Assembly (NCBI GenBank): GCA_002793515.1
Contig: PFEU01000008.1
Location: 73,952 to 134,626 of the forward strand
DNA length: 60,675 nucleotides
Direction: 5' to 3'
Origin: Candidatus Uhrbacteria bacterium CG10_big_fil_rev_8_21_14_0_10_48_16
GTDB lineage: Bacteria > Patescibacteriota > Patescibacteriia > UBA9934 > GWF2-40-263
A program made the position numbers and the translations under genes. How positions within the stretch are numbered: position 1 is the first letter of the stretch; each line of letters opens with the position of its first letter. The notes beneath the pieces are model-generated. The model worked only from the letters and a program-made list of their open reading frames with translations, was not told the origin of the DNA and did not search any database. This document shows, one piece after another, positions 1,861 to 14,209 of this stretch.

Positions 1861-3366
1861 TTAGTCGAAGATTGTATAGAACCAAGATGTTGTATCTGGT
1901 GCCGTATTACAATTGTAATCCGCGGTGGTAAGAGCCGATGCAACAGAATCGGTAATAGCCCCAAAACTGAATGACCCGAGATAACACGCTTTTTCTGCCT
2001 CCGTACGATTCCACGCACACATATCATTGAGTGTTCCACCTCCACCGCAAAACGATCCTAATGTCAGGTCTCCAAGATTATCGTACAGGACTTTTCCTGC
2101 TCCAGAATCTGTTCCTGGAAGACCGGAATTTTTTCCAAGATCAATATTCTCAAGAGTTGTGTTTCCACTCGAAGAAAAGACTGGAAGCGTCTCATAGTCT
2201 TCACATGTTTTAACCTGTGAACAATTGACGACAACACGCGCACACGCAGCCGTTCCCGTTGGATCTCCTCCTCCATCAGGATCTCGTGTAAGAAAACAGG
2301 CTTCATATTTTTGCACAACCGTCTCCTCCCATTGAATCGTCTTTCCTGCATTTGGACCAACCGTTGGTGTGAAACTTGCCGTCTTCGGTGAAATATCCGT
2401 TTCATACCGAGGCAAACTATTAAATGCCGAACAGATGGAAGCCGTTGGAGGAAGGACCGTATTATCAGACGTTAATTCCTCACAAGCCATACACGTCGGC
2501 GTCTCTCCCGGAATACACATCTCTCTGTCATTCGCACAAAACGCAAAGTTACAAACAACTCCATCTACGGTTGCATTTCCTTCTGGATCTTTTGTCACGG
2601 TTCCCACCGTTCCACATGCCTTGGGACCAGAATACTCAATGGCATATCCCTCTTTGATCAAGTCATCGCAAGAAGCATTATCAACAAGACTCACGGTTTT
2701 AATCATGGGAAAATCCGGAACGGACATCTTCAAAAGCTGTGGATTCACGGTAAATAGAATGAGGTAGGTTGAGAGAAGCAACACCAGCCCCATGACGGCA
2801 TTTTTAATCGTCGTCTTTGCCTTCCCGACCTGTTCAGAGCTCAACCCTCCCAATGACCAACGAATTCCAGCAACCATTAACATCACGATTGCGATCGTGG
2901 TAGCAGCTCCTAACATCCACTGATAGGCTTTCGCAACATACTCCCCTAAGTCCCCCGCCACAGTCAGTCCGCCTATAGATGTTGAGAGCGTAAGTTTCGC
3001 AGCCTTCGATGGATCAGGAAAACAATAGTGATACCCATTCGGACACTCAGGAGGCTGATACCCATCGAGAACCCCATTATGTTCTGCACACTGATCTGCC
3101 GTGAAACAATTCAAACTTCGGGATGGATGTTGATTCGCCGTACAAGCAAAAGCCGCAATATTTTGACCGCTCGCCTTACACGCAGTATCACATGCCGTAC
3201 GTTCAATTTTGGTGGTTGCGTCTGGATACTGTTTCGCTCCCGTGGGACTTGTGCAATAACACGAACAACTATCTGTTGCCGCTTGCACAGATGGAACGGC
3301 TCCAAAAACCCCGATGATCATCAAGGTCATCAACATGGCACCAAAAAATCGCTGAGTCTTTCTCAT
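1861..3366 (-). CDS. Cys-rich secreted/membrane protein with CPR-type pilin-like (TrbC/VirB2-like) hairpin domain
   Basis: Signal peptide; two hydrophobic helices (MLGAATTIAIVMLMVAGIRW...AKTTIKNAVMGLVLLLSTYLILFTVNPQLL) typical of CPR pilin-like proteins; many Cys in the flanking domains. Confidence 0.65.
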   Translation of the reverse strand: MRKTQRFFGAMLMTLMIIGVFGAVPSVQAATDSCSCYCTSPTGAKQYPDATTKIERTACDTACKASGQNIAAFACTANQHPSRSLNCFTADQCAEHNGVLDGYQPPECPNGYHYCFPDPSKAAKLTLSTSIGGLTVAGDLGEYVAKAYQWMLGAATTIAIVMLMVAGIRWSLGGLSSEQVGKAKTTIKNAVMGLVLLLSTYLILFTVNPQLLKMSVPDFPMIKTVSLVDNASCDDLIKEGYAIEYSGPKACGTVGTVTKDPEGNATVDGVVCNFAFCANDREMCIPGETPTCMACEELTSDNTVLPPTASICSAFNSLPRYETDISPKTASFTPTVGPNAGKTIQWEETVVQKYEACFLTRDPDGGGDPTGTAACARVVVNCSQVKTCEDYETLPVFSSSGNTTLENIDLGKNSGLPGTDSGAGKVLYDNLGDLTLGSFCGGGGTLNDMCAWNRTEAEKACYLGSFSFGAITDSVASALTTADYNCNTAPDTTSWFYTIFD

Positions 3367-8447: not shown

Positions 8448-9434
8448 ATGAACCGTATCCTTACTGCCCTTCAACCTTCAGGAATTCTCCATATCGGAAA
8501 CCTCTTTGGCGCCATTGAACCCATGGTAGGCCTTCAATCTGATGAGAATGAGAACCTGCTTTTCGCCGTGGATTATCACGCCATCACCGTTCCACAGAAG
8601 CCCGCAGAACTCCGTCGAAATATTCTGTTCGCGACAGCCACCTATCTTGCGGTAGGCATCGATCCGACAAAAACGATTCTCTTTCAACAGTCTCGTGTAA
8701 GCGAGCACACAGAACTCGCATGGATTTTGAACTGCATCGCTCACATGGGTGAGCTCGAACGCATGACGCAATTCAAAGACAAGAGTCAGGGGAATGATCT
8801 GTCTGTCTCCGTTGGACTCTTCGACTACCCTGTTCTTATGGCCTCGGACATCTTGCTGTACGACACAAACGTGGTTCCTGTTGGGGCAGATCAAAAACAA
8901 CATGTAGAACTCGCACGTGATCTCGCAGAGCGTTTCAACAACCGTTTTGGAGAAACCTTTGTCGTCCCAACTCCACAGATCAGAAAAGAAGGAGCGCGTA
9001 TCATGGGGCTCGATGACCCAGAAAAGAAAATGTCGAAGTCTGCCACAAGCGAGAAAAACTATATTTCGATCATGGATGATGAAGCGACCGTTCTCAAAAA
9101 GATTAAGTCCGCCGTCACAGATTCACAGTCTACGATTATGTATGACGAAAAACGCAAGGGCCTTGCGAACCTCCTAACCATCTACTCTCTGGTGACGAAC
9201 ACGCACGTCAATCAAATCGCAAGCGAGTACGAAGGAAAAGGCTACGGCGATTTCAAAGTTGGTCTAGCCGAAGCGATCAGTGACTACCTCACTCCCCTTC
9301 AAGAAAAAATCAAAGGATATCTCGCAAACGAGGACGAACTCATCAACATCCTCGACCAAGGAGCCCAGCGCGCAAAAGCGATCGCCAGCAAAAAAATGGA
9401 AGTCGTACGACAAAAGATTGGTGTTCAACTCTAA
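8448..9434 (+). CDS. trpS: Tryptophan--tRNA ligase
   Basis: LQPSGILHIGN (HIGH), YPVLMASDIL, VPVGADQKQH, KMSKS. Confidence 0.97.
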   Translation: MNRILTALQPSGILHIGNLFGAIEPMVGLQSDENENLLFAVDYHAITVPQKPAELRRNILFATATYLAVGIDPTKTILFQQSRVSEHTELAWILNCIAHMGELERMTQFKDKSQGNDLSVSVGLFDYPVLMASDILLYDTNVVPVGADQKQHVELARDLAERFNNRFGETFVVPTPQIRKEGARIMGLDDPEKKMSKSATSEKNYISIMDDEATVLKKIKSAVTDSQSTIMYDEKRKGLANLLTIYSLVTNTHVNQIASEYEGKGYGDFKVGLAEAISDYLTPLQEKIKGYLANEDELINILDQGAQRAKAIASKKMEVVRQKIGVQL

Positions 9435-9441
9435 ACCTTAC

Positions 9442-9466
9442 AAAAACAGGCAAAAAGCCTGTTTTT
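9442..9466 (+). terminator. Intrinsic terminator after trpS
   Basis: AAAAACAGGC/GCCTGTTTTT inverted repeat. Confidence 0.7.
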
Positions 9467-9568
9467 AGGTTGACAAACTCAACTTTCTCTGGCAAAGTCG
9501 CCGGTCATAGTCACCCTGGCTATGCCCCGAGAAATCGGTTCGTTCTTCCCCAAAGAAAGGAGAGTGGC

Positions 9569-10915
9569 ATGCGACATGTCCTCGACTGCATCGGTCTCGA
9601 TGGCGAGACCACTCAGGTTCGCCGAGAAGACCTGTTCCCTCGCGTGAACCGCATCGCCAAGCTGATCGAGGTCCTCAAGACCCAGGTCGTCGGCCGCGAC
9701 ACGCTCATCGACCGCATCCTCTTCGCCCTGTGCACCCGCGAGCACGTCCTCACCTGGGGACCGCCTGGAACGGGCAAGAGTCTGATCATGCGCAAGATCG
9801 TCCGTGCGAGCCGGGGCATGCGATCCTTCTCCATCGGCCTGAGCGCCGAGACGACGGAGAGCAAGCTCTTCGGCGATCCTGACGGCGCGCACTTCCGCGA
9901 AACGGGCGAGATCCGCCACCTGGTGGAGGGCTCCATCCTGGACGCCCACCTCGTGCGCCTGGGCGAGTGCCTCAACGGCGGCTCCCAGCTCCTGGAATCA
10001 CTCAACGACGTTCTGGAGGAGCGCGAGTTCCATCGCGGGAAGCAGATCGTGCGTGCGCCGCTCATGACCACCCTCGCCGACACCAACGTCGACCCGATGG
10101 AAGCCGTGGGAGCGAACCGGGATCTGGAGCCCTTCATCGACCGCTTCGTCTTCCTGATGCCCGTCGGCTACGTGGAGGGAACCGAACAGCGCCTGCGTAT
10201 GTTGCGCAAGTACAAGTCCCGCGCCGTGCATGCACCCCTGCCCGAACTGACCCTGGAAGACCTCGTCACGGTCTCAGGTGTCATCATCAAATCGGACCTG
10301 GCCGAGGACACCGTCATCGAGCAGGCGTACGAAGAGTTGGTGCGTGTCTTCTGCGACGCCACCGGCGAGACCATCGGTGACCGCACCTGGTTGCGCATGT
10401 CCCAGCTCATCGAGCTCAGCGCACTCTTGAACGGTCGCACCCACGCCACGTTGGACGACCTCCGCCTCACCGGTGCTGGCCTCATCCGCCGGCCTGGCGA
10501 GGAAGAAGCGTTCGAAAACGCCCTGGCCCAAGTGGTCGATGGCAAGTGGAAGCGCGCCGAGCACCAGGAGCGCATCCAGGCAGAAGAAGAGATCCTCGCG
10601 CGCATTGAGGCTTCGCTCCCGAGCGAAGATGAGATCGCCGAACGTTCCGTCAACGCGTTCCCGCAACTCCTGCGCCGTCTCAAAGCGGCCACGTCCCGGC
10701 TCAACCAGCTCACCATGAGCTCGCAGACCAACCGCGATCGGCTCCAGATGCTGCTCGCCGACATCGAGGTGCGTCAGACCATGCTCTTCGGAGTGGTCCA
10801 GAAGGCCACGGACCCGGAGGACCTGGCCGAGGCGGACGAACTGATCGCTGCCGGCACCTCGCCCGACGATCCCACCGAGCCCAAGAGCGGTGAGGATCCC
10901 GACGAGGCATCCTGA
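9569..10915 (+). CDS. MoxR/RavA-like AAA+ ATPase with C-terminal helical extension; GC-rich
   Basis: Walker A WGPPGTGKS, LFGDP, Arg-finger region PFIDRF; Walker B position reads VRLGEC; SD AAAGGAG upstream of ATG 9569. Confidence 0.85.
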   Translation: MRHVLDCIGLDGETTQVRREDLFPRVNRIAKLIEVLKTQVVGRDTLIDRILFALCTREHVLTWGPPGTGKSLIMRKIVRASRGMRSFSIGLSAETTESKLFGDPDGAHFRETGEIRHLVEGSILDAHLVRLGECLNGGSQLLESLNDVLEEREFHRGKQIVRAPLMTTLADTNVDPMEAVGANRDLEPFIDRFVFLMPVGYVEGTEQRLRMLRKYKSRAVHAPLPELTLEDLVTVSGVIIKSDLAEDTVIEQAYEELVRVFCDATGETIGDRTWLRMSQLIELSALLNGRTHATLDDLRLTGAGLIRRPGEEEAFENALAQVVDGKWKRAEHQERIQAEEEILARIEASLPSEDEIAERSVNAFPQLLRRLKAATSRLNQLTMSSQTNRDRLQMLLADIEVRQTMLFGVVQKATDPEDLAEADELIAAGTSPDDPTEPKSGEDPDEAS

Positions 10916-12147
10916 TGGATCCCATCACTCTCGCTATCATCGCGACACTCGCAACGAGCGGAACGATCGGGACCGCAGCCGGAGCCGTCGCCCTCTACCG
11001 GGCGATTGAACGTGCTGGTTTCCCCAAGACGACACCGTCGGGTAAGCCCATCATGTACGAGCGTCTCACTCCCGAGGAGATCGCCATCCAGATGGCTCGC
11101 CGCGTGGTCATCACCCACACGCTCATCACCATCGGACACGATCGCACCGGCCAGAAGGCTGTAGGCGAACGTATCATCGGCCACCGCAAGGTGGGCGAAC
11201 GCAAGGTGGGCGAGAAGGTCGTTGGTTACAATGTCGTCAGCCACCGCAAGGTGGGTGAACGACAGATCGGTGAGGAACAAGTCGGCGTACGGACAACCGG
11301 TCACCGATGGAAGGAATCACCAATCCCCGCTGACCGTGTGCGCCTTCGCGCCATCCGTGGACTCGAAGAGTTCCACCGTCGCCTTCCGGCCGAGCTCCTG
11401 CTTCCACCAGACATGCAGGAACTCCGCATCCTGACGGGTGAGGCGCAAGTCCTCGCCTTCGAGCGTCGCCTGCCAATCATCGAACCCATCATGGTTCCGA
11501 TCATGGAGGATGTGACCGAGCCTGTCACCGAACCGGTGGTGGAACCCGTTATGGAAGACGTGATGGAAGCTGTCACGGAAACCATCTGGGAACCCGTCTA
11601 CGAACCAGTGACACGCAAGAAGACACACGGCGTCTACATGTTGATCGACTACTCCCAATCCGCGCGGGTCGGCTTGATCGGCTCCATAGGCCGATACTCC
11701 AGACCTGGCCACCCCTGGCGTGGGAAACTCAGCGACCAAGCGGCGGTCGAAACACTCAAACGCTGCCAGCAGGAGGGGATCCCCTTCTACTGCCGTGCAT
11801 TCCACAACGAAGCCCTGAAGCTCTTCACTTGGAGGCCTGGCGACCCTCCGGGGAACGTCATGGACTATCTCAACGGATGCAGACACGGCGGCACAAACAT
11901 TGCCGTAGCCATCGAGACAGCCATCGGCGACCTCACTGGAGAGGGACTCGACTCCGCTGACCTCATGTTGCACACTGACGGAGAAGACAACCTCGACGAA
12001 TCACTCCGTCGACGACTCGACCAAGCCAACGTGCGTCTGCACGTCCAGCTCTATGGTGTAGAGAACGAGACGCTTCGGCGACTCGCCCACACCTGGAGCC
12101 TGTGCCCCACCAATCGCTACCTCTCGCAGGTAGTCACGAACTCCTGA
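10915..12147 (+). CDS. ViaA/CoxE-like von Willebrand A domain protein with N-terminal hydrophobic helix and internal repeats
   Basis: MIDAS motifs IDYSQS, GGTNIAVAI, HTDGED; ViaA-like RRLPAELLL motif; start overlaps the ATPase stop. Confidence 0.8.
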   Translation: MDPITLAIIATLATSGTIGTAAGAVALYRAIERAGFPKTTPSGKPIMYERLTPEEIAIQMARRVVITHTLITIGHDRTGQKAVGERIIGHRKVGERKVGEKVVGYNVVSHRKVGERQIGEEQVGVRTTGHRWKESPIPADRVRLRAIRGLEEFHRRLPAELLLPPDMQELRILTGEAQVLAFERRLPIIEPIMVPIMEDVTEPVTEPVVEPVMEDVMEAVTETIWEPVYEPVTRKKTHGVYMLIDYSQSARVGLIGSIGRYSRPGHPWRGKLSDQAAVETLKRCQQEGIPFYCRAFHNEALKLFTWRPGDPPGNVMDYLNGCRHGGTNIAVAIETAIGDLTGEGLDSADLMLHTDGEDNLDESLRRRLDQANVRLHVQLYGVENETLRRLAHTWSLCPTNRYLSQVVTNS

Positions 12148-12179
12148 ATGCACAAATAGGAGAACCCACCTCCTACCTC

Positions 12180-12252
12180 CCCACCACACACGCTGGTGGG
12201 ATTTTTATTTTCATCAAAAAGAAAAGCACCCGGACTCCGTGGAGTTGGGTGC
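12180..12252. terminator. Back-to-back terminators between convergent accessory operons
   Basis: CCCACCA/TGGTGGG plus T tract (+ strand); GCACCC...GGGTGC preceded by an A tract (- strand). Confidence 0.7.
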
Positions 12253-12262
12253 GCGTGTGTGA

Positions 12263-13447
12263 TCACTCGTAGTGTCTGCTTCGACTTGACGTCCACTCTT
12301 CGTGACGATTGTTGATGATCCAGAAGCTCAGGCCGAGGTTGATCAAAAGCGTCAGGAAGTAGGAGAGGACGACCGCCCAGCCGGGTGGCTCCACCGTAAG
12401 GTAAGAGAAGTCAGCGAAGGGCTTACGAACGAAGCGCTTGCGCACTTCTGGGACCATGTAGTCCACGAGATCAACGAGGTCGAGCGTCCCCTGGTTCAGG
12501 GCGTACTCACGGACATCGATCTTGAGACGATCCTGTTCGGTCCACGAGATGACGTGGGTCCAGGTAACCTTGCCAGATCGGTCGGTGCCAAGGGCGAGGA
12601 TGAACTCGTTCTTGTTCCCACCCTTCCAGTAGCTCTCCTGAGCAAGTCCAGTCTCGAGGGTTGATTCGGGTCCGAAGACCAGTACGAACATCTTGACTTG
12701 CTTGTTCCTTCCAATCTTGGCGTTCCAGAACCGTAGGAGCGTATCCGCTTCCCTCGTTTCTGACCCACCATTCCCCAGGATGGCTGGTTGATCCCAGCTT
12801 CCGATCCCTGGGTACTCATAGAGACCCCAGACCTTCGGATTCACCTCTTCGAAGTTGAAGACGGAAGTGGAGGCCTGAACGCGGTTCTCGTAGGTGTGTC
12901 TTGTTGTGACCTCGACGAAGCTCGCGTCGTCCTTCGTGTTCCACGTAGCGACGTACTTGTCACCGTCGATAGAGTGGTAATCACGGTGCATGTCCACGAA
13001 GACACGACTATGCCACTTGCTGACAAGACCTTCGAACTGGCCTGAGCTGATGGACTGCGATTCTCCGTTGGAGTCGTGGAGAACCCAACGTGGTGGATGG
13101 TCGTCTACATCGTAGAGATGCTCCGTGCCGCAGGCGACACGTTCGGTGCAGGAGTAGGTGCTCCCATCTGAGTTGGTACAGGTAGACGGTTGGTCACAGT
13201 ACTTCGTGTGCGTACAAGGAACCTCCTCGTCCCAGCGCTCGAAGTACTCGGCATGCGTTGCCCATCCGCCCCAGAACTCGGTATCCGCCGTCTGCACCAT
13301 CTCGGTCCCATACTTGAACCCAGCGATGCACACGATCGAAACCGCGAACGGAACGATGAACTCCCAGGCGACCGTCTTGTGACGGAACCAGGCATACAGA
13401 ACGATTGCCACAACGATCGGGATCGCCATGGCTCCCCAGATGATCAT
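12263..13447 (-). CDS. Hypothetical membrane protein (2 N-terminal TM, Cys-rich insert, alpha/beta TPM-like region, C-terminal TM); GC-rich
   Basis: 394-aa ORF with SD AGGAG and GC-rich codons; TPM-like call is by eye only. Confidence 0.75.
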   Translation of the reverse strand: MIIWGAMAIPIVVAIVLYAWFRHKTVAWEFIVPFAVSIVCIAGFKYGTEMVQTADTEFWGGWATHAEYFERWDEEVPCTHTKYCDQPSTCTNSDGSTYSCTERVACGTEHLYDVDDHPPRWVLHDSNGESQSISSGQFEGLVSKWHSRVFVDMHRDYHSIDGDKYVATWNTKDDASFVEVTTRHTYENRVQASTSVFNFEEVNPKVWGLYEYPGIGSWDQPAILGNGGSETREADTLLRFWNAKIGRNKQVKMFVLVFGPESTLETGLAQESYWKGGNKNEFILALGTDRSGKVTWTHVISWTEQDRLKIDVREYALNQGTLDLVDLVDYMVPEVRKRFVRKPFADFSYLTVEPPGWAVVLSYFLTLLINLGLSFWIINNRHEEWTSSRSRHYE

Positions 13448-13482
13448 GACGATCTCCTACTGTGGTGGGGGGGGTAGAAGTT

Positions 13483-14034
13483 CTAGTTCTTGCCGTTGCT
13501 GAACAGGTCAACGTCGTTCTCCTGACCGGACGAGAAGGCCTCGTCGGTCTTCGCACTCGTCACGAGCTGGATCTTGATCTCGGGTCGACCGCCGACGAAG
13601 ATGGAGCTGGGAAGCGTCTCGCGGAGGTTGTCGTGCTGTGCCTTGATGTCGATCAGCTTCTTCTGCTCACGCGCGAACTTGGTCCGCTCAGCTTCGATGG
13701 AGCGCATCAGGTCCTGGTAGAGCGCAGTGTCGAACTCCGGATTGTGTTCGGTGATCCAGCTCATGAGGGCACCACCGCGGTCATTGCCGTAGCGACCCTC
13801 CATCAGCTCGGGGTAGATCTCCTTGAAGTCCTTCGCGTACTGGCTGCTGACGCCGGCCTTCTGCTGGATGATCTTCCAGGTGGCATCGAACACCACCTCC
13901 AAGTTCTCTTGCTGAGCCTCGGCCAGATTGCGCGTACGCACCTCAGCATTAGTGTAGTTGACGTACATCCCGATCGTCATCATGGCGATGACAGCCAGGC
14001 TCAGGAGGCCGACGAGAAGTCCCTTGTTCTGCAT
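13483..14034 (-). CDS. LemA-like single-TM helical protein; GC-rich
   Basis: N-terminal TM then amphipathic helices ending TLPSSIFVG, reminiscent of the LemA C-terminal FP-x-N-IVA segment. Confidence 0.65.
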   Translation of the reverse strand: MQNKGLLVGLLSLAVIAMMTIGMYVNYTNAEVRTRNLAEAQQENLEVVFDATWKIIQQKAGVSSQYAKDFKEIYPELMEGRYGNDRGGALMSWITEHNPEFDTALYQDLMRSIEAERTKFAREQKKLIDIKAQHDNLRETLPSSIFVGGRPEIKIQLVTSAKTDEAFSSGQENDVDLFSNGKN

Positions 14035-14107
14035 GATCTCACTTCCTTCTGTTTCTCACACATCCGACATCCATGCGCGGTCATCGCGACACAGATACGG
14101 ATGCCAG

Positions 14108-14136
14108 ATAGTAACGAAACATCACTCGCCTGTCAA
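14108..14136 (-). promoter_or_regulatory. Sigma70 promoter for the LemA-like operon
   Basis: Minus strand TTGACA-N17-TACTAT. Confidence 0.7.
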
Positions 14137-14180
14137 CCAAAAACCTCCCTTTAAAGATAAAAGTCCCTTTCTTTTTTCCA

Positions 14181-14209
14181 TTGACAAAAACAGGGAAAAG
14201 TCGTATTCT
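14181..14209 (+). promoter_or_regulatory. Sigma70 promoter for rnpB
   Basis: TTGACA-N17-TATTCT, 6 nt before the RNA 5' end. Confidence 0.75.

Follow-up and report, generated by a model that had tools for sequence, protein, structure and literature searches.

How force is transmitted from a MoxR ATPase to its VWA partner has only just begun to be resolved. Cryo-EM work of 2026 on NorQD proposes a pore finger that is twisted by the ring; in PdNorD the finger comprises residues 403-448 (PDB 9qhd/9qhe), and the C-terminal tail of NorD binds NorQ's post-sensor-1 loop (PMC9976466, PMC13036017). A ViaA fragment is sufficient for RavA binding (PMC9489729), and it spans the N-terminal part of the ViaA region matched by the protein described here. 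MoxR and vWA proteins also form the centre of the 'ternary' conflict systems (Kaur, Burroughs, Iyer, Aravind 2020; PMC7159879). In the window, a stretch of 60,675 nucleotides of Candidatus Uhrbacteria DNA, we characterized a ViaA/NorD-type VWA partner of MoxR that carries two short-period repeat tracts. The original prediction recognized no described family for this architecture; the ribbon proposed below lies at the published NorD 'finger' site and is most likely a threefold-stretched version of the finger that MoxR partners use to engage the ATPase.

The VWA gene (10915..12147, + strand) encodes a 410-aa, membrane-anchored protein with five close homologues. It is translationally coupled to a bpMoxR-type AAA+ gene (9569..10915, + strand), the stop codon of the latter overlapping the start codon of the former in the sequence ATGA. 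The ATPase matches the Pfam models bpMoxR (E 7.5e-29) and AAA_5 (E 2.8e-12) and, under that model's cutoff, NCBIfam RavA (E 5.6e-19). Because homologues begin at an equivalent Met, the gene likely starts at the ATG at 9569 rather than at TTG 9470, the start in the ORF list. A bpMoxR gene is found directly upstream in 9 of 9 loci with a long enough contig (L001-L008, L013-15); in L009 the contig end truncates the gene upstream of the VWA gene. The adjacent, co-oriented MoxR gene and the ViaA homology upstream of the VWA domain together identify the protein as a MoxR partner, and it may bind and regulate the MoxR hexamer.

The gene pair lies within a GC-rich island, and the chromosome around it is Parcubacteria/Uhrbacteria-like. 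Two further island genes, both on the - strand, are possibly associated with it. The first (12263..13447) encodes a 394-aa protein with hydrophobic segments at both ends that matches phrog_2087 (E 1.7e-47) and has no match in Pfam or NCBIfam; a similar-sized protein occupies the same position in L001 and L002 and is absent there in L009. The second (13483..14034) encodes a 183-aa protein with an N-terminal hydrophobic helix, has a 182-aa counterpart in L001 and matches phrog_1383 (E 3.6e-43), which carries the PHROGs name 'virion structural protein'. The PHROGs matches raised a phage origin as a candidate, for which blastn and tblastn searches of 50,697 phage records returned nothing. The window also encodes RNase J, Trp/Tyr-tRNA synthetase, a DsbA-like protein, an SBP_bac_5 protein and a glycosyltransferase cluster, and its gene order is syntenic with a Parcubacteria MAG. 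We rejected a phage origin because of these cellular genes, the Parcubacteria synteny and the lack of matches to phage records; the window is CPR chromosome.

The VWA protein begins with a hydrophobic helix predicted to anchor it in the membrane (aa 3-28, 10921..10998; AlphaFold2 helices 3-14 and 21-34). In relatives the helix is followed by an R/K cluster and, since basic residues come after the membrane segment, the remainder of the protein should be cytoplasmic by the positive-inside rule. At the other end is a VWA domain (aa 238-410, 11626..12144) with an intact MIDAS site formed by D245-x-S247-x-S249 (nt 11647-11661), T327 and D355, residues that are the sole invariant columns in 57 aligned relatives. 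The target alone falls under the Pfam cutoff (VWA_CoxE, E 0.07), while 32-36 of the 57 relatives match Pfam VWA, VWA_2 or VWA_CoxE at E<0.01. The family profile matches solved VWA domains with E values of 1e-11 to 1e-6, as well as NorD, and Foldseek returned probabilities of 1.0 for many VWA structures, the best match of the target model being NorD 9qhe_G (E 4.4e-7). The domain ends in a conserved C-terminal tail, WSLxP...SQVV.

Between the anchor and the VWA domain lie strand A (aa 66-135, 11110..11319), a module of 42 residues (aa 136-177, 11320..11445) and strand B (aa 178-237, 11446..11625), which passes through a two-residue turn into the first VWA strand, β-1. Both strands are assigned from periodicity, the AlphaFold2 model and the corresponding strands of a short relative, P0007. 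The module comprises a PIPAD turn, a short strand (141-146) and three short helices that contain the RRLPAELLL segment (11377-11403). The ViaA-like motif predicted at this position was confirmed by comparing the family profile with E. coli ViaA (96% probability, E 3.9e-9), RRLPAELLL falling on ViaA LRLLPPELA; the hhalign match extends over 206 columns, family positions 119-331 against ViaA 219-454. Residues E134, P138, R145, E152 and R171 in this region are nearly invariant family-wide.

Tract 1 (aa 71-130, nt 11125-11304) consists of 12 pentapeptides of the form x-x-V/I-G-x; position 4 is Gly in 11 of 12 units and Ser in the remaining one, unit 8. Tract 2 (aa 187-234, nt 11473-11616), separated from it by 56 residues, consists of 12 tetrapeptides P/D-V/I-x-E. 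Both agree exactly with the units first delineated, although the nucleotide span then given, 11125-11610, is correct at its start and ends 6 nt before the end of the last unit. The periodicity was evaluated with 100,000 shuffles (p ≤ 1e-5). A single phase of 5 holds all 11 Gly residues of tract 1, which 0 of 100,000 shuffles reached; in tract 2 a single phase of 4 holds 8 of 8 Pro and also 10 of 12 Asp/Glu, each reached by 1 of 100,000. The repeats are degenerate at the DNA level, where Tandem Repeats Finder detected only a 15-mer in 1.9 copies and a 12-mer in 2.8. Tract 1 contains 12 K/R, 7 D/E and 4 His, and tract 2 contains 1 K/R and 12 D/E, a net charge of -11. As tract 1 is mixed in charge, the opposite charge originally ascribed to the tracts holds for the net value only. 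Read from the sequence, tract 2 is apolar on one face, with P alternating with M/T/V/W/Y.

Homology searches identified 467 relatives of the VWA protein at E<1e-3, and the best 150 of 467 or more were retrieved for comparison. The five close homologues (49-94% identity) all keep the periodicity and the tract lengths. Indels among them are absent from tract 2 and amount to just 1-3 residues in tract 1, confined to its centre (residue 96/97), with gaps in 3 of the 73 columns of A and in none of the 60 columns of B. Mean identity is 0.52 and 0.56 in the tracts versus 0.56 in the VWA domain, and the inter-tract module is the best-conserved region (mean identity 0.69, zero indels). Position 4 of tract 1 is Gly across homologues, Asp being the commonest substitute, followed by Arg, His, Ser, Asn and others. 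Because the tracts are conserved about like the VWA domain and have almost no indels they are unlike a disordered linker; poor conservation, frequent indels and low predicted order, the marks of such a linker, were not found in them apart from low pLDDT at the tract centres. Five further proteins (P0049, P0055, P0063, P0083 and P0130) are eukaryotic and of low complexity, with one repeat type each, and were discarded as spurious.

About 50 distant relatives carry only ~3+3 units, and relative to these strand B contains an exact 36-residue insertion. Measured between fixed anchors, the (A,B) lengths fall into four classes, (30,32) in 40 proteins, (25,28) in 11, (19,24) in 2 and (70,68) in 6, with no discordant member within the classes. 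Between clades the lengths of A and B change by -5/-4, -11/-8 and +40/+36 residues, and the neighbour-joining tree of the VWA domain places these changes in at least three separate events. The two strands therefore move together in steps of ~5 and ~4 residues, the copy-number co-variation that the original prediction had put forward as a check. Exceptions are P0078 (24,20) and P0105 (about 30-35, 53), and in a class without tetrapeptide units the A-region, 24-36 residues long, is retained and looks helical. Among 1.84 billion representative proteins no form with 4-11 units was found, as judged from the best 150 of 467 or more relatives, and a metagenome scan added 51 loci, nearly all of the unit-less class and none with more than 3 units. 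The idea that the tracts are 'length-tunable', in the sense of actively varying, was not borne out, as each of the six known members has 12/12 units and the repeats, at the DNA level, are degenerate and old.

The structure of the 3-unit relative P0007 was predicted by AlphaFold2 from a 73-sequence alignment with a pLDDT of 95-98 in the tract region. In this model a continuous strand at 85-105 spans RVVVG-HKTVG-RRVVG, and a second at 148-169 spans PVTE-PIIE-PIFR before a 2-residue turn into β-1. The conserved PAD/LLPSE (ViaA-like) module lies between these two strands of 21-22 residues, and the model contains no third strand long enough to partner either of them. Foldseek aligned NorD to the P0007 model along the entire NorD chain. 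The model of the 12-unit protein has the same order of elements, and only A and B are longer. Strand A is predicted at 70-94 and 105-135, with pLDDT <50 at 95-103, strand B at 178-207 and 216-235, with pLDDT <50 at 209-214, and β-1 at 238-245; pLDDT reaches 82-95 across two thirds of the tract length and falls to 48-64 in the middles. By AlphaFold2, A lengthens from 21 to 66 residues (+45 = 9x5) and B from 22 to 58 (+36 = 9x4). By sequence anchors A gained 40 residues and B 36, rather than 45 and 36, and the surplus of A over B, at 4-9 residues, thus leaves the originally proposed Gly bulge in every unit unestablished.

Mean-field direct-coupling analysis was performed on 68-72 sequences, with an effective number of only ~70; a second word-indexed search for this analysis returned 3 proteins. 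Five or six A-B pairs rank in the top 50, K91-E164 at rank 3, and all except one lie at i+j = 255-258. In the A x B block only antidiagonals 254-259, with a dip at 257, make up a sustained band of positive values, so that both strands fall on a single antiparallel diagonal, as the proposal of paired tracts anticipated. Three other pairs, P128-G182, T144-L176 and D111-L174, hint at contact between the 'tip' module and the VWA domain. The unit patterns also read as complementary when antiparallel, with R/K opposite E and V opposite V on one face, and cross-tract 5:4 registers score 0.24-0.27 compared with 0.14 for the best tract-1 hairpin. A permutation test on MI (p 5e-4) was set aside as phylogeny-confounded because the parallel-register control was also significant (4.5e-3). 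Per-unit conservation of tract 1 correlates with that of reversed tract 2 (r 0.74, permutation p 0.004); we rejected this as a discriminator, as the U-shaped profile fits either topology and tract 1 is itself mirror-symmetric about unit 6 (r 0.71 at i+j=197).

The reading we prefer, and to which we give about an even chance, is that the two tracts are the up-strand (A) and the down-strand (B) of one antiparallel β-ribbon. Self-pairing of tract 2 is disfavoured by its net charge of -11, and the recurrence of Pro at every fourth position fits a strand with hydrogen bonds along one edge only. Of the antiparallel two-stranded ribbon originally envisaged, the partnering of the tracts is upheld by the strands, the coupling and the lengths; its continuity is not, the 12-unit strands breaking at their centres with pLDDT <50. 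Judging from the models, A would pair with B in the 12-unit form as well. At the near end of the ribbon strand B would run straight into β-1, leading to the MIDAS metal site, and the start of A would be tied to the same place and, via a 35-residue linker, to the membrane helix. The far end would bear the conserved PAD/LLPSE module, a layout presumably shared with the ~50 distant ~3+3-unit relatives. The position of the ribbon would correspond to that of the 'finger' by which NorD-type VWA proteins engage the MoxR hexamer pore and the H2 inserts. In the Uhrbacteria/Parcubacteria clade each strand would have grown from ~22 to ~58-66 residues, from ~7 nm to ~19 nm if straight, through nine more 5-residue units on A and nine more 4-residue units on B, and bulges at the Gly/Asp positions may absorb the extra residues of A. 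With the MoxR ring docked on the tip module and/or around it, the ribbon could act as a stiff shaft or spacer that couples movements of the co-encoded ring to the substrate-binding MIDAS face near the membrane.

Some observations count against the ribbon. A free two-stranded ribbon of ~19 nm is physically unusual. The partner MoxR has an H2 insert of unchanged length, and no compensating change was found in its H2 insert, pore loop and pre-sensor-1 regions. The tract-centre breaks, the central indels and the mirror symmetry of tract 1 also fit a fold-back, and DSSP strand lengths fit a meander equally well (25:25, 31:30, 20:20).

Among the alternatives the one that fares best, and that we consider possible if rather doubtful, has each 12-unit tract folding at its centre, with turns at ~aa 95-104 and 208-215. 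The tracts would then form either two long hairpins, lying next to or facing each other, or a meander of four strands (A1-A2-B1-B2). Such an arm would measure ~8-10 nm and leave the PAD/LLPSE module beside the VWA domain. The low-confidence breaks of the AlphaFold2 model fall at the exact centres of both strands, the arm lengths fit (25:25, 20:20, 31:30), tract 1 has its indels only at residue 96/97 and its conservation is mirror-symmetric as noted above. In the short family some coupling pairs hint at contact of the module with β-1 and the MIDAS loop, and if it touches the VWA domain then both ends of the ancestral ribbon are fixed and the insertion must loop out. The NorD finger is itself a contiguous hairpin-like excursion. 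Folding back would, however, break the ancestral pairing between the beginning of A and the end of B, and it provides no reason for equal unit numbers or for the concerted -5/-4 and -11/-8 changes. Pairing tract 2 with itself would bring 12 acidic residues together with a single basic one, a meander would make an internal strand of the Pro-richest arm (187-207), and the best tract-1 hairpin register scores below the cross-tract registers. Because the P0007 strands are continuous and the indels covary, we demoted the reading of the 12-unit model as two self-hairpins.

We think it unlikely that the ribbon takes the form of a free-standing, ~19 nm two-stranded shaft or track running through or alongside an unchanged MoxR ring, its 5:4 match maintained as in a vernier by a regular Gly/Asp bulge. 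If it did, the clades with 0, 1, 2, 3 and 12 unit pairs would constitute a natural length series of the MoxR 'finger'.

It is very unlikely, in our judgement, that the inserted units are not stably folded and behave as PEVK- or elastin-type springs or polyproline-like rods, merely setting the distance between the membrane, the VWA domain and the MoxR-binding module. In composition (P, E, V, K/R, G) they resemble titin PEVK and elastomers built of Gly pentapeptides, pLDDT drops to 48-64 in the middle of both tracts, and similar single-type repeats stand alone in unrelated eukaryotic proteins. Unexpanded relatives have a long Pro-rich/charged linker after the membrane helix that is missing in the 12-unit clade, so total spacer length may be what matters. 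Against such spacers, tract 2 has zero indels and tract 1 only 1-3 residues of them in homologues down to 49% identity, both tracts are conserved like the VWA domain and keep their phase-specific residues, two thirds of their length is predicted at pLDDT 82-95, and the homologous short segments are confidently strands in P0007. Least credible of all is pairing of strands between protomers, for example in a barrel or sheet that several VWA proteins build around a single MoxR hexamer. In its favour, a two-stranded ribbon of 19 nm is unusual on its own, MoxR rings are hexameric, one face of tract 2 is apolar and a dimer has been reported for E. coli ViaA (PMC9489729), but a single AlphaFold2 chain satisfies all strands of the short relative at pLDDT 95-98 and NorQD is a 6:1 complex.

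Across the family the length of the element at the finger position varies ~sixfold, whereas the pore elements of the ATPase are constant; these natural variants therefore allow a direct test between a fixed-length pore plug and a shaft or spacer. A ribbon of matched 5- and 4-residue repeats that gains and loses units in concert would be unusual and would offer a simple rod-length rule for design. The locus also provides a membrane-associated MoxR system of candidate-phyla bacteria, located on a compositionally foreign island beside conserved membrane proteins.

Comparison with described systems places the locus as follows. It shares the MoxR-vWA core with the ternary systems, some of whose vWA components have N-terminal membrane segments (PMC7159879), and its ATPase matches bpMoxR, a model from the β-propeller subtype. 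Neither the third gene of those systems (β-propeller, VMAP, iSTAND or FtsH) nor an effector domain fused to the vWA protein was found in the gene neighbourhood within the window or in fifteen related loci, which were fetched with called genes (L001-L009, L013-15) or scanned. With PADLOC the VWA protein had no match and MoxR only a marginal one (mad8, E 0.0028), and membership of a defence system was rejected on this result.

The pentapeptide-repeat family PF00805 shares only the five-residue period. Its A(D/N)LXX units form a β-helix, whereas tract 1 has the consensus x-x-V-G-x, only 12 units and a predicted long strand rather than a four-sided helix, and no Pfam match to PF00805 was obtained at E≤0.1. 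TonB is likewise membrane-anchored and has acidic and basic short-period tracts, (Glu-Pro)n followed by (Lys-Pro)n, thought to be a fixed-distance spacer. The TonB tracts are polyproline-like dipeptide repeats lying next to each other; those described here have periods of 5 and 4, are separated by 56 residues, are predicted to be β-strands and change length in concert.

ViaA shares the PAD-like turn, the LLPxEL motif, the strand before β-1 and the VWA domain, and its gene also follows its MoxR gene with stop and start overlapping. The inter-tract module aligns to ViaA 219-306, and the 36-residue tract-2 insertion sits between ViaA residues 306 and 307. ViaA lacks the Gly-pentapeptide strand, the repeats and the membrane helix, binds lipids via a C-terminal Arg-rich helix, and has no counterpart of its first ~218 residues in our protein.

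NorD, like the protein described here, is a MoxR-co-encoded VWA partner with an intact MIDAS and a conserved C-terminal tail. In NorD the finger is a single contiguous excursion of ~46 residues that has a loop at its tip, whereas here a folded module of 42 residues lies between strands of 58-66 residues each. In place of the membrane helix NorD has a disordered linker and a large soluble domain at its N-terminus, and our ATPase is of the bpMoxR type, not NorQ. NorD β-1 aligns from ~448 in the family profile alignment, and strand B (178-235) forms a β-structured protrusion immediately N-terminal of β-1. Both proteins thus carry a β-structured protrusion before β-1 that is joined through this strand to the MIDAS.

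The C-terminal 170 residues of the 410-residue protein encoded at 10915-12147 (+) form a VWA domain whose MIDAS site is intact; D245, S247, S249, T327 and D355 are the sole invariant columns among 57 relatives. The family profile matches solved VWA domains and NorD. It also matches E. coli ViaA (96% probability, E 3.9e-9), so the segment between the two repeat tracts of this protein is ViaA-like, in agreement with the original prediction. RRLPAELLL aligns onto ViaA LRLLPPELA, and the bulk of tract 2 forms a 36-residue insertion between ViaA residues 306 and 307, just ahead of strand β1. Basic residues follow an N-terminal hydrophobic helix, an arrangement that predicts a membrane-anchored protein with its bulk in the cytoplasm. 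The C-terminal tail (window 12094-12144; WSLxP...SQV) is largely invariant in six close homologues, the invariant residues being W394, S395, L396, P398, S404, Q405 and V406.

Tract 1 (residues 71-130, nt 11125-11304) consists of 12 pentapeptides in which all 11 Gly share one phase of five, with Ser replacing Gly in unit 8. Tract 2 (residues 187-234, nt 11473-11616) consists of 12 tetrapeptides; 8 of 8 Pro and 10 of 12 acidic residues each occupy one phase of four. Shuffling the tracts 100,000 times never reached the Gly phasing, and reached the Pro and acidic phasing once each, confirming the 12 x 5 and 12 x 4 repeats as first described. The opposite charge proposed for the tracts holds only in net terms: tract 2 is acidic (12 D/E, 1 K/R), tract 1 mixed (12 K/R, 7 D/E, 4 His). 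At the DNA level Tandem Repeats Finder detected no more than 1.9 copies of a 15-mer and 2.8 of a 12-mer, indicating that the repeats are old. Similar short repeats are present in some phage proteins, as phrog_15846 matches tract 2 (window 11473-11628, E 1.4e-6) and phrog_14105 matches tract 1 (window 11116-11304, E 3.7e-3).

Only five close homologues were found among 5.8 billion clustered proteins, and a complete HMMER search of 1.84 billion representatives returned 467 relatives. Typical relatives have 330-370 residues and about three units of each kind. A membrane helix is followed by a Pro-rich or charged linker, H-x-x-F...R-V-x-V-G-x-x-K-T-G-E-R-x-I-G...E-E-x-P-Y-P-A-D, a helical LLPSE module, G-E-A-L-V...P-V-M-E-D-I-x-E-P-V-Y-E and the VWA domain. 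Long tracts occurred in two clusters only of the 1.84 billion representatives, the next match falling to E 1e-42. In a genome scan the long form turned up in MAGs of Candidatus Uhrbacteria and Parcubacteria, one each, and none of 51 additional metagenome loci exceeded three units. Each of the six long forms carries 12+12 units; among them tract 2 is without indels and tract 1 has indels of 1-3 residues. The tracts are thus "length-tunable", as had been proposed, across clades (0, 1, 2, 3 and 12 unit pairs), but show no ongoing variation. One relative, P0004 (346 aa; NCBI protein for L012 6001-7230, JABMNZ010000002.1), is truncated N-terminally; the complete ORF, of 409 codons, does encode the membrane helix.

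The explanation with the best support, to which we assign about an even chance, is the one first proposed: the two tracts pair as strands of a single ribbon, on either side of the ViaA-like motif. With AlphaFold2 we modelled the target from a 57-sequence alignment (mean pLDDT 84.5) and P0007, a three-unit relative, from 73 sequences (mean pLDDT 92; 95-98 in the strand A-to-B region). In P0007, strand A (residues 85-105), the counterpart of the strand that carries tract 1, is continuous across three Gly units, and strand B (148-169), the counterpart of the one with tract 2, is continuous across three tetrapeptide units; each is the other's sole long-enough partner. Between them lie the turn PYPAD (106-110), a short strand (111-116) and three helices (120-144), and a two-residue turn links strand B to β1 (172-179). 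Element order is identical in the target, with strand A at 70-94 and 105-135, the turn PIPAD at 136-140, the short strand at 141-146, the three helices at 150-174, strand B at 178-207 and 216-235, and a two-residue turn before β1 (238-245). Lengths differ in the two strands only: from P0007 to the target model strand A grows from 21 to 66 residues (+45 = 9x5) and strand B from 22 to 58 (+36 = 9x4). By sequence anchors the gain of strand A is 40 residues, not 45, giving a surplus over B of 4-9 residues. One bulge per pentapeptide unit is plausible, since Gly and Asp dominate position 4 in the units of homologues, where Arg, His, Ser and Asn also occur.

Covariation of tract lengths, the test proposed with the original prediction, was examined in 143 relatives aligned to the family HMM, counting residues between fixed anchors. 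Relative to the reference class of 40 members with (A,B) lengths of (30,32), the classes (25,28; 11 members), (19,24; 2 members) and (70,68; 6 members) differ by -5/-4, -11/-8 and +40/+36, and none of these four classes contains a discordant member. A neighbour-joining tree of the VWA domain places the 28 and 24 classes in one clade, with 24 nested inside, and the long form in a separate clade, implying at least three concordant length events. The rule has exceptions. A large class without a tetrapeptide unit (B = 20) retains 24-36 residues upstream of PAD, helical-looking and free of Gly units; P0078 (24,20) falls inside the 28 clade; and in P0105 B gains 21 residues with A about unchanged. 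P0105 (L005 6001-7428, GCA_043767845.1), a 475-residue relative without a membrane helix, has its extra strand B residues in a different, Pro/Val/Glu/Lys-rich sequence and may represent an independent elongation outside the 5:4 rule.

Of the 50 strongest pairs in direct coupling analysis (68-72 sequences), five or six join A to B; K91-E164 ranks third among all pairs. With one exception these A-B pairs have i+j = 255-258. Within the A x B block, positive coupling is sustained only along antidiagonals 254-259, with a dip at 257. With an effective sequence number of only ~70 this result is suggestive; a mutual information (MI) permutation test of A-B pairing was confounded by phylogeny. Read antiparallel with one residue per pentapeptide skipped, the tracts place R/K opposite E and V opposite V on one face, and Pro at every fourth residue of tract 2 fits a strand bonded on one side.

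The main rival, which we regard as rather unlikely, is a fold-back arm, in which the ribbon doubles back on itself or the tracts form two hairpins. In the target, pLDDT drops from 82-95 towards the two ends of each tract to below 50 at 95-103 and 209-214, the exact tract centres. Such central breaks are compatible with folding back, and so are two features of tract 1, its indels at residue 96/97 and a conservation profile with mirror symmetry. There are also coupling pairs hinting that the PAD/LLPSE module, the conserved ViaA-like part between the strands, touches β1 and the MIDAS loop, which, if real, favours this arrangement. Yet a hairpin of tract 2 only would bear a net charge of -11, and the best tract-1 hairpin register scores 0.14 versus 0.24-0.27 for the cross-tract registers, which lie ~2 SD over the mean of all registers. 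DSSP strand lengths are compatible with both ribbon and fold-back. Disordered linkers are argued against by the tracts being conserved as well as the VWA domain and nearly indel-free.

The window derives from a bacterial chromosome of the candidate phyla (Parcubacteria/Uhrbacteria-like). Genes for RNase J, a class I Trp/Tyr-tRNA synthetase, a DsbA-like protein, a T4SS-pilin-like protein and a glycosyltransferase cluster lie on it, and it is syntenic with a Parcubacteria MAG. A phage origin was rejected, as the window had no match by DNA or protein among 50,697 phage records. A 501-residue protein at 1861-3366 (-) has a T4SS_pilin domain (E 1.8e-7) and lies beside a DsbA-like thioredoxin. A MoxR-class AAA+ gene (Pfam bpMoxR, E 7.5e-29) directly precedes the VWA gene, as in all related loci whose contig extends far enough. 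Its start is likely ATG 9569 rather than the listed TTG 9470, because homologues begin at that ATG (window 9470-9571). Translational coupling is suggested by the overlap of the MoxR stop with the VWA-gene start as ATGA (10912-10917) and by a GAGG 7 nt upstream. The MoxR Walker B (9953-9967) reads VRLGE, with Gly at the expected Asp position, as in 6 of 8 aligned partner MoxRs; that of L005 has D-E, and that of L004 seems misaligned there. A PF08010 (Phage_30_3) gene lies near the bpMoxR-VWA pair in two unrelated loci (L007 3003-3716; L013/L014/L015 2760-3260).

Both genes lie in a GC-rich island (9400-14200, 56-65% GC; MoxR 64.7%, VWA gene 60.3%) together with two minus-strand membrane-protein genes (56.3% and 58.5%); the flanking genes have 47.7% and 50.1%. 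The same GC step is found in the syntenic Parcubacteria MAG (L001 6000-13000). The membrane proteins, at 12263-13447 (-) and 13483-14034 (-), match phrog_2087 (E 1.7e-47) and phrog_1383 (E 3.6e-43, labelled 'virion structural protein'), respectively, and nothing in Pfam or NCBIfam. In L001 they sit next to the long-form VWA gene; L002 retains this arrangement in part, and L009 does not have it. Antisense ORFs of 176-218 codons within the GC-rich genes (10774-11304, 11317-11973 and 10168-10764, all minus-strand) are probably artefacts of composition.

Foldseek returned NorD of the NorQD complex as the top match for the target model, and its alignment of NorD with the short-form model spans the entire chain, but with a large rmsd. 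Immediately ahead of NorD β1 is a 46-residue β 'finger' (residues 403-448), which enters the NorQ pore and makes contact with the H2 inserts; remodelling requires it. Profile alignment puts NorD β1 at ~residue 448, so strand B of the target occupies the finger position. The N-terminal fragment 1-319 of ViaA is sufficient for RavA binding, and the PAD/LLPSE module aligns within it. On these two comparisons, the ribbon would be an elaborated finger, docking the MoxR ring through the module at its tip. Between the aligned partner ATPases of long and short forms, neither the H2 insert nor the pore regions contain an indel, and for this reason the extra ~12 nm of ribbon would project past the ring or serve as a spacer. 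The C-terminal tail is conserved in the target and its homologues, and NorD binds the NorQ post-sensor-1 loop through its C-terminus. Published bpMoxR ternary conflict systems have a third component and effector domains, and neither was found around the target genes or in fifteen related loci. PADLOC did not match the VWA protein, and its match to MoxR was marginal (mad8, E 0.0028). The original prediction assigned the architecture to no described family. The protein is instead of a known kind: it is one of the ViaA/NorD-type MoxR partners with a finger, though an unusual one, built from repeats and greatly elongated.
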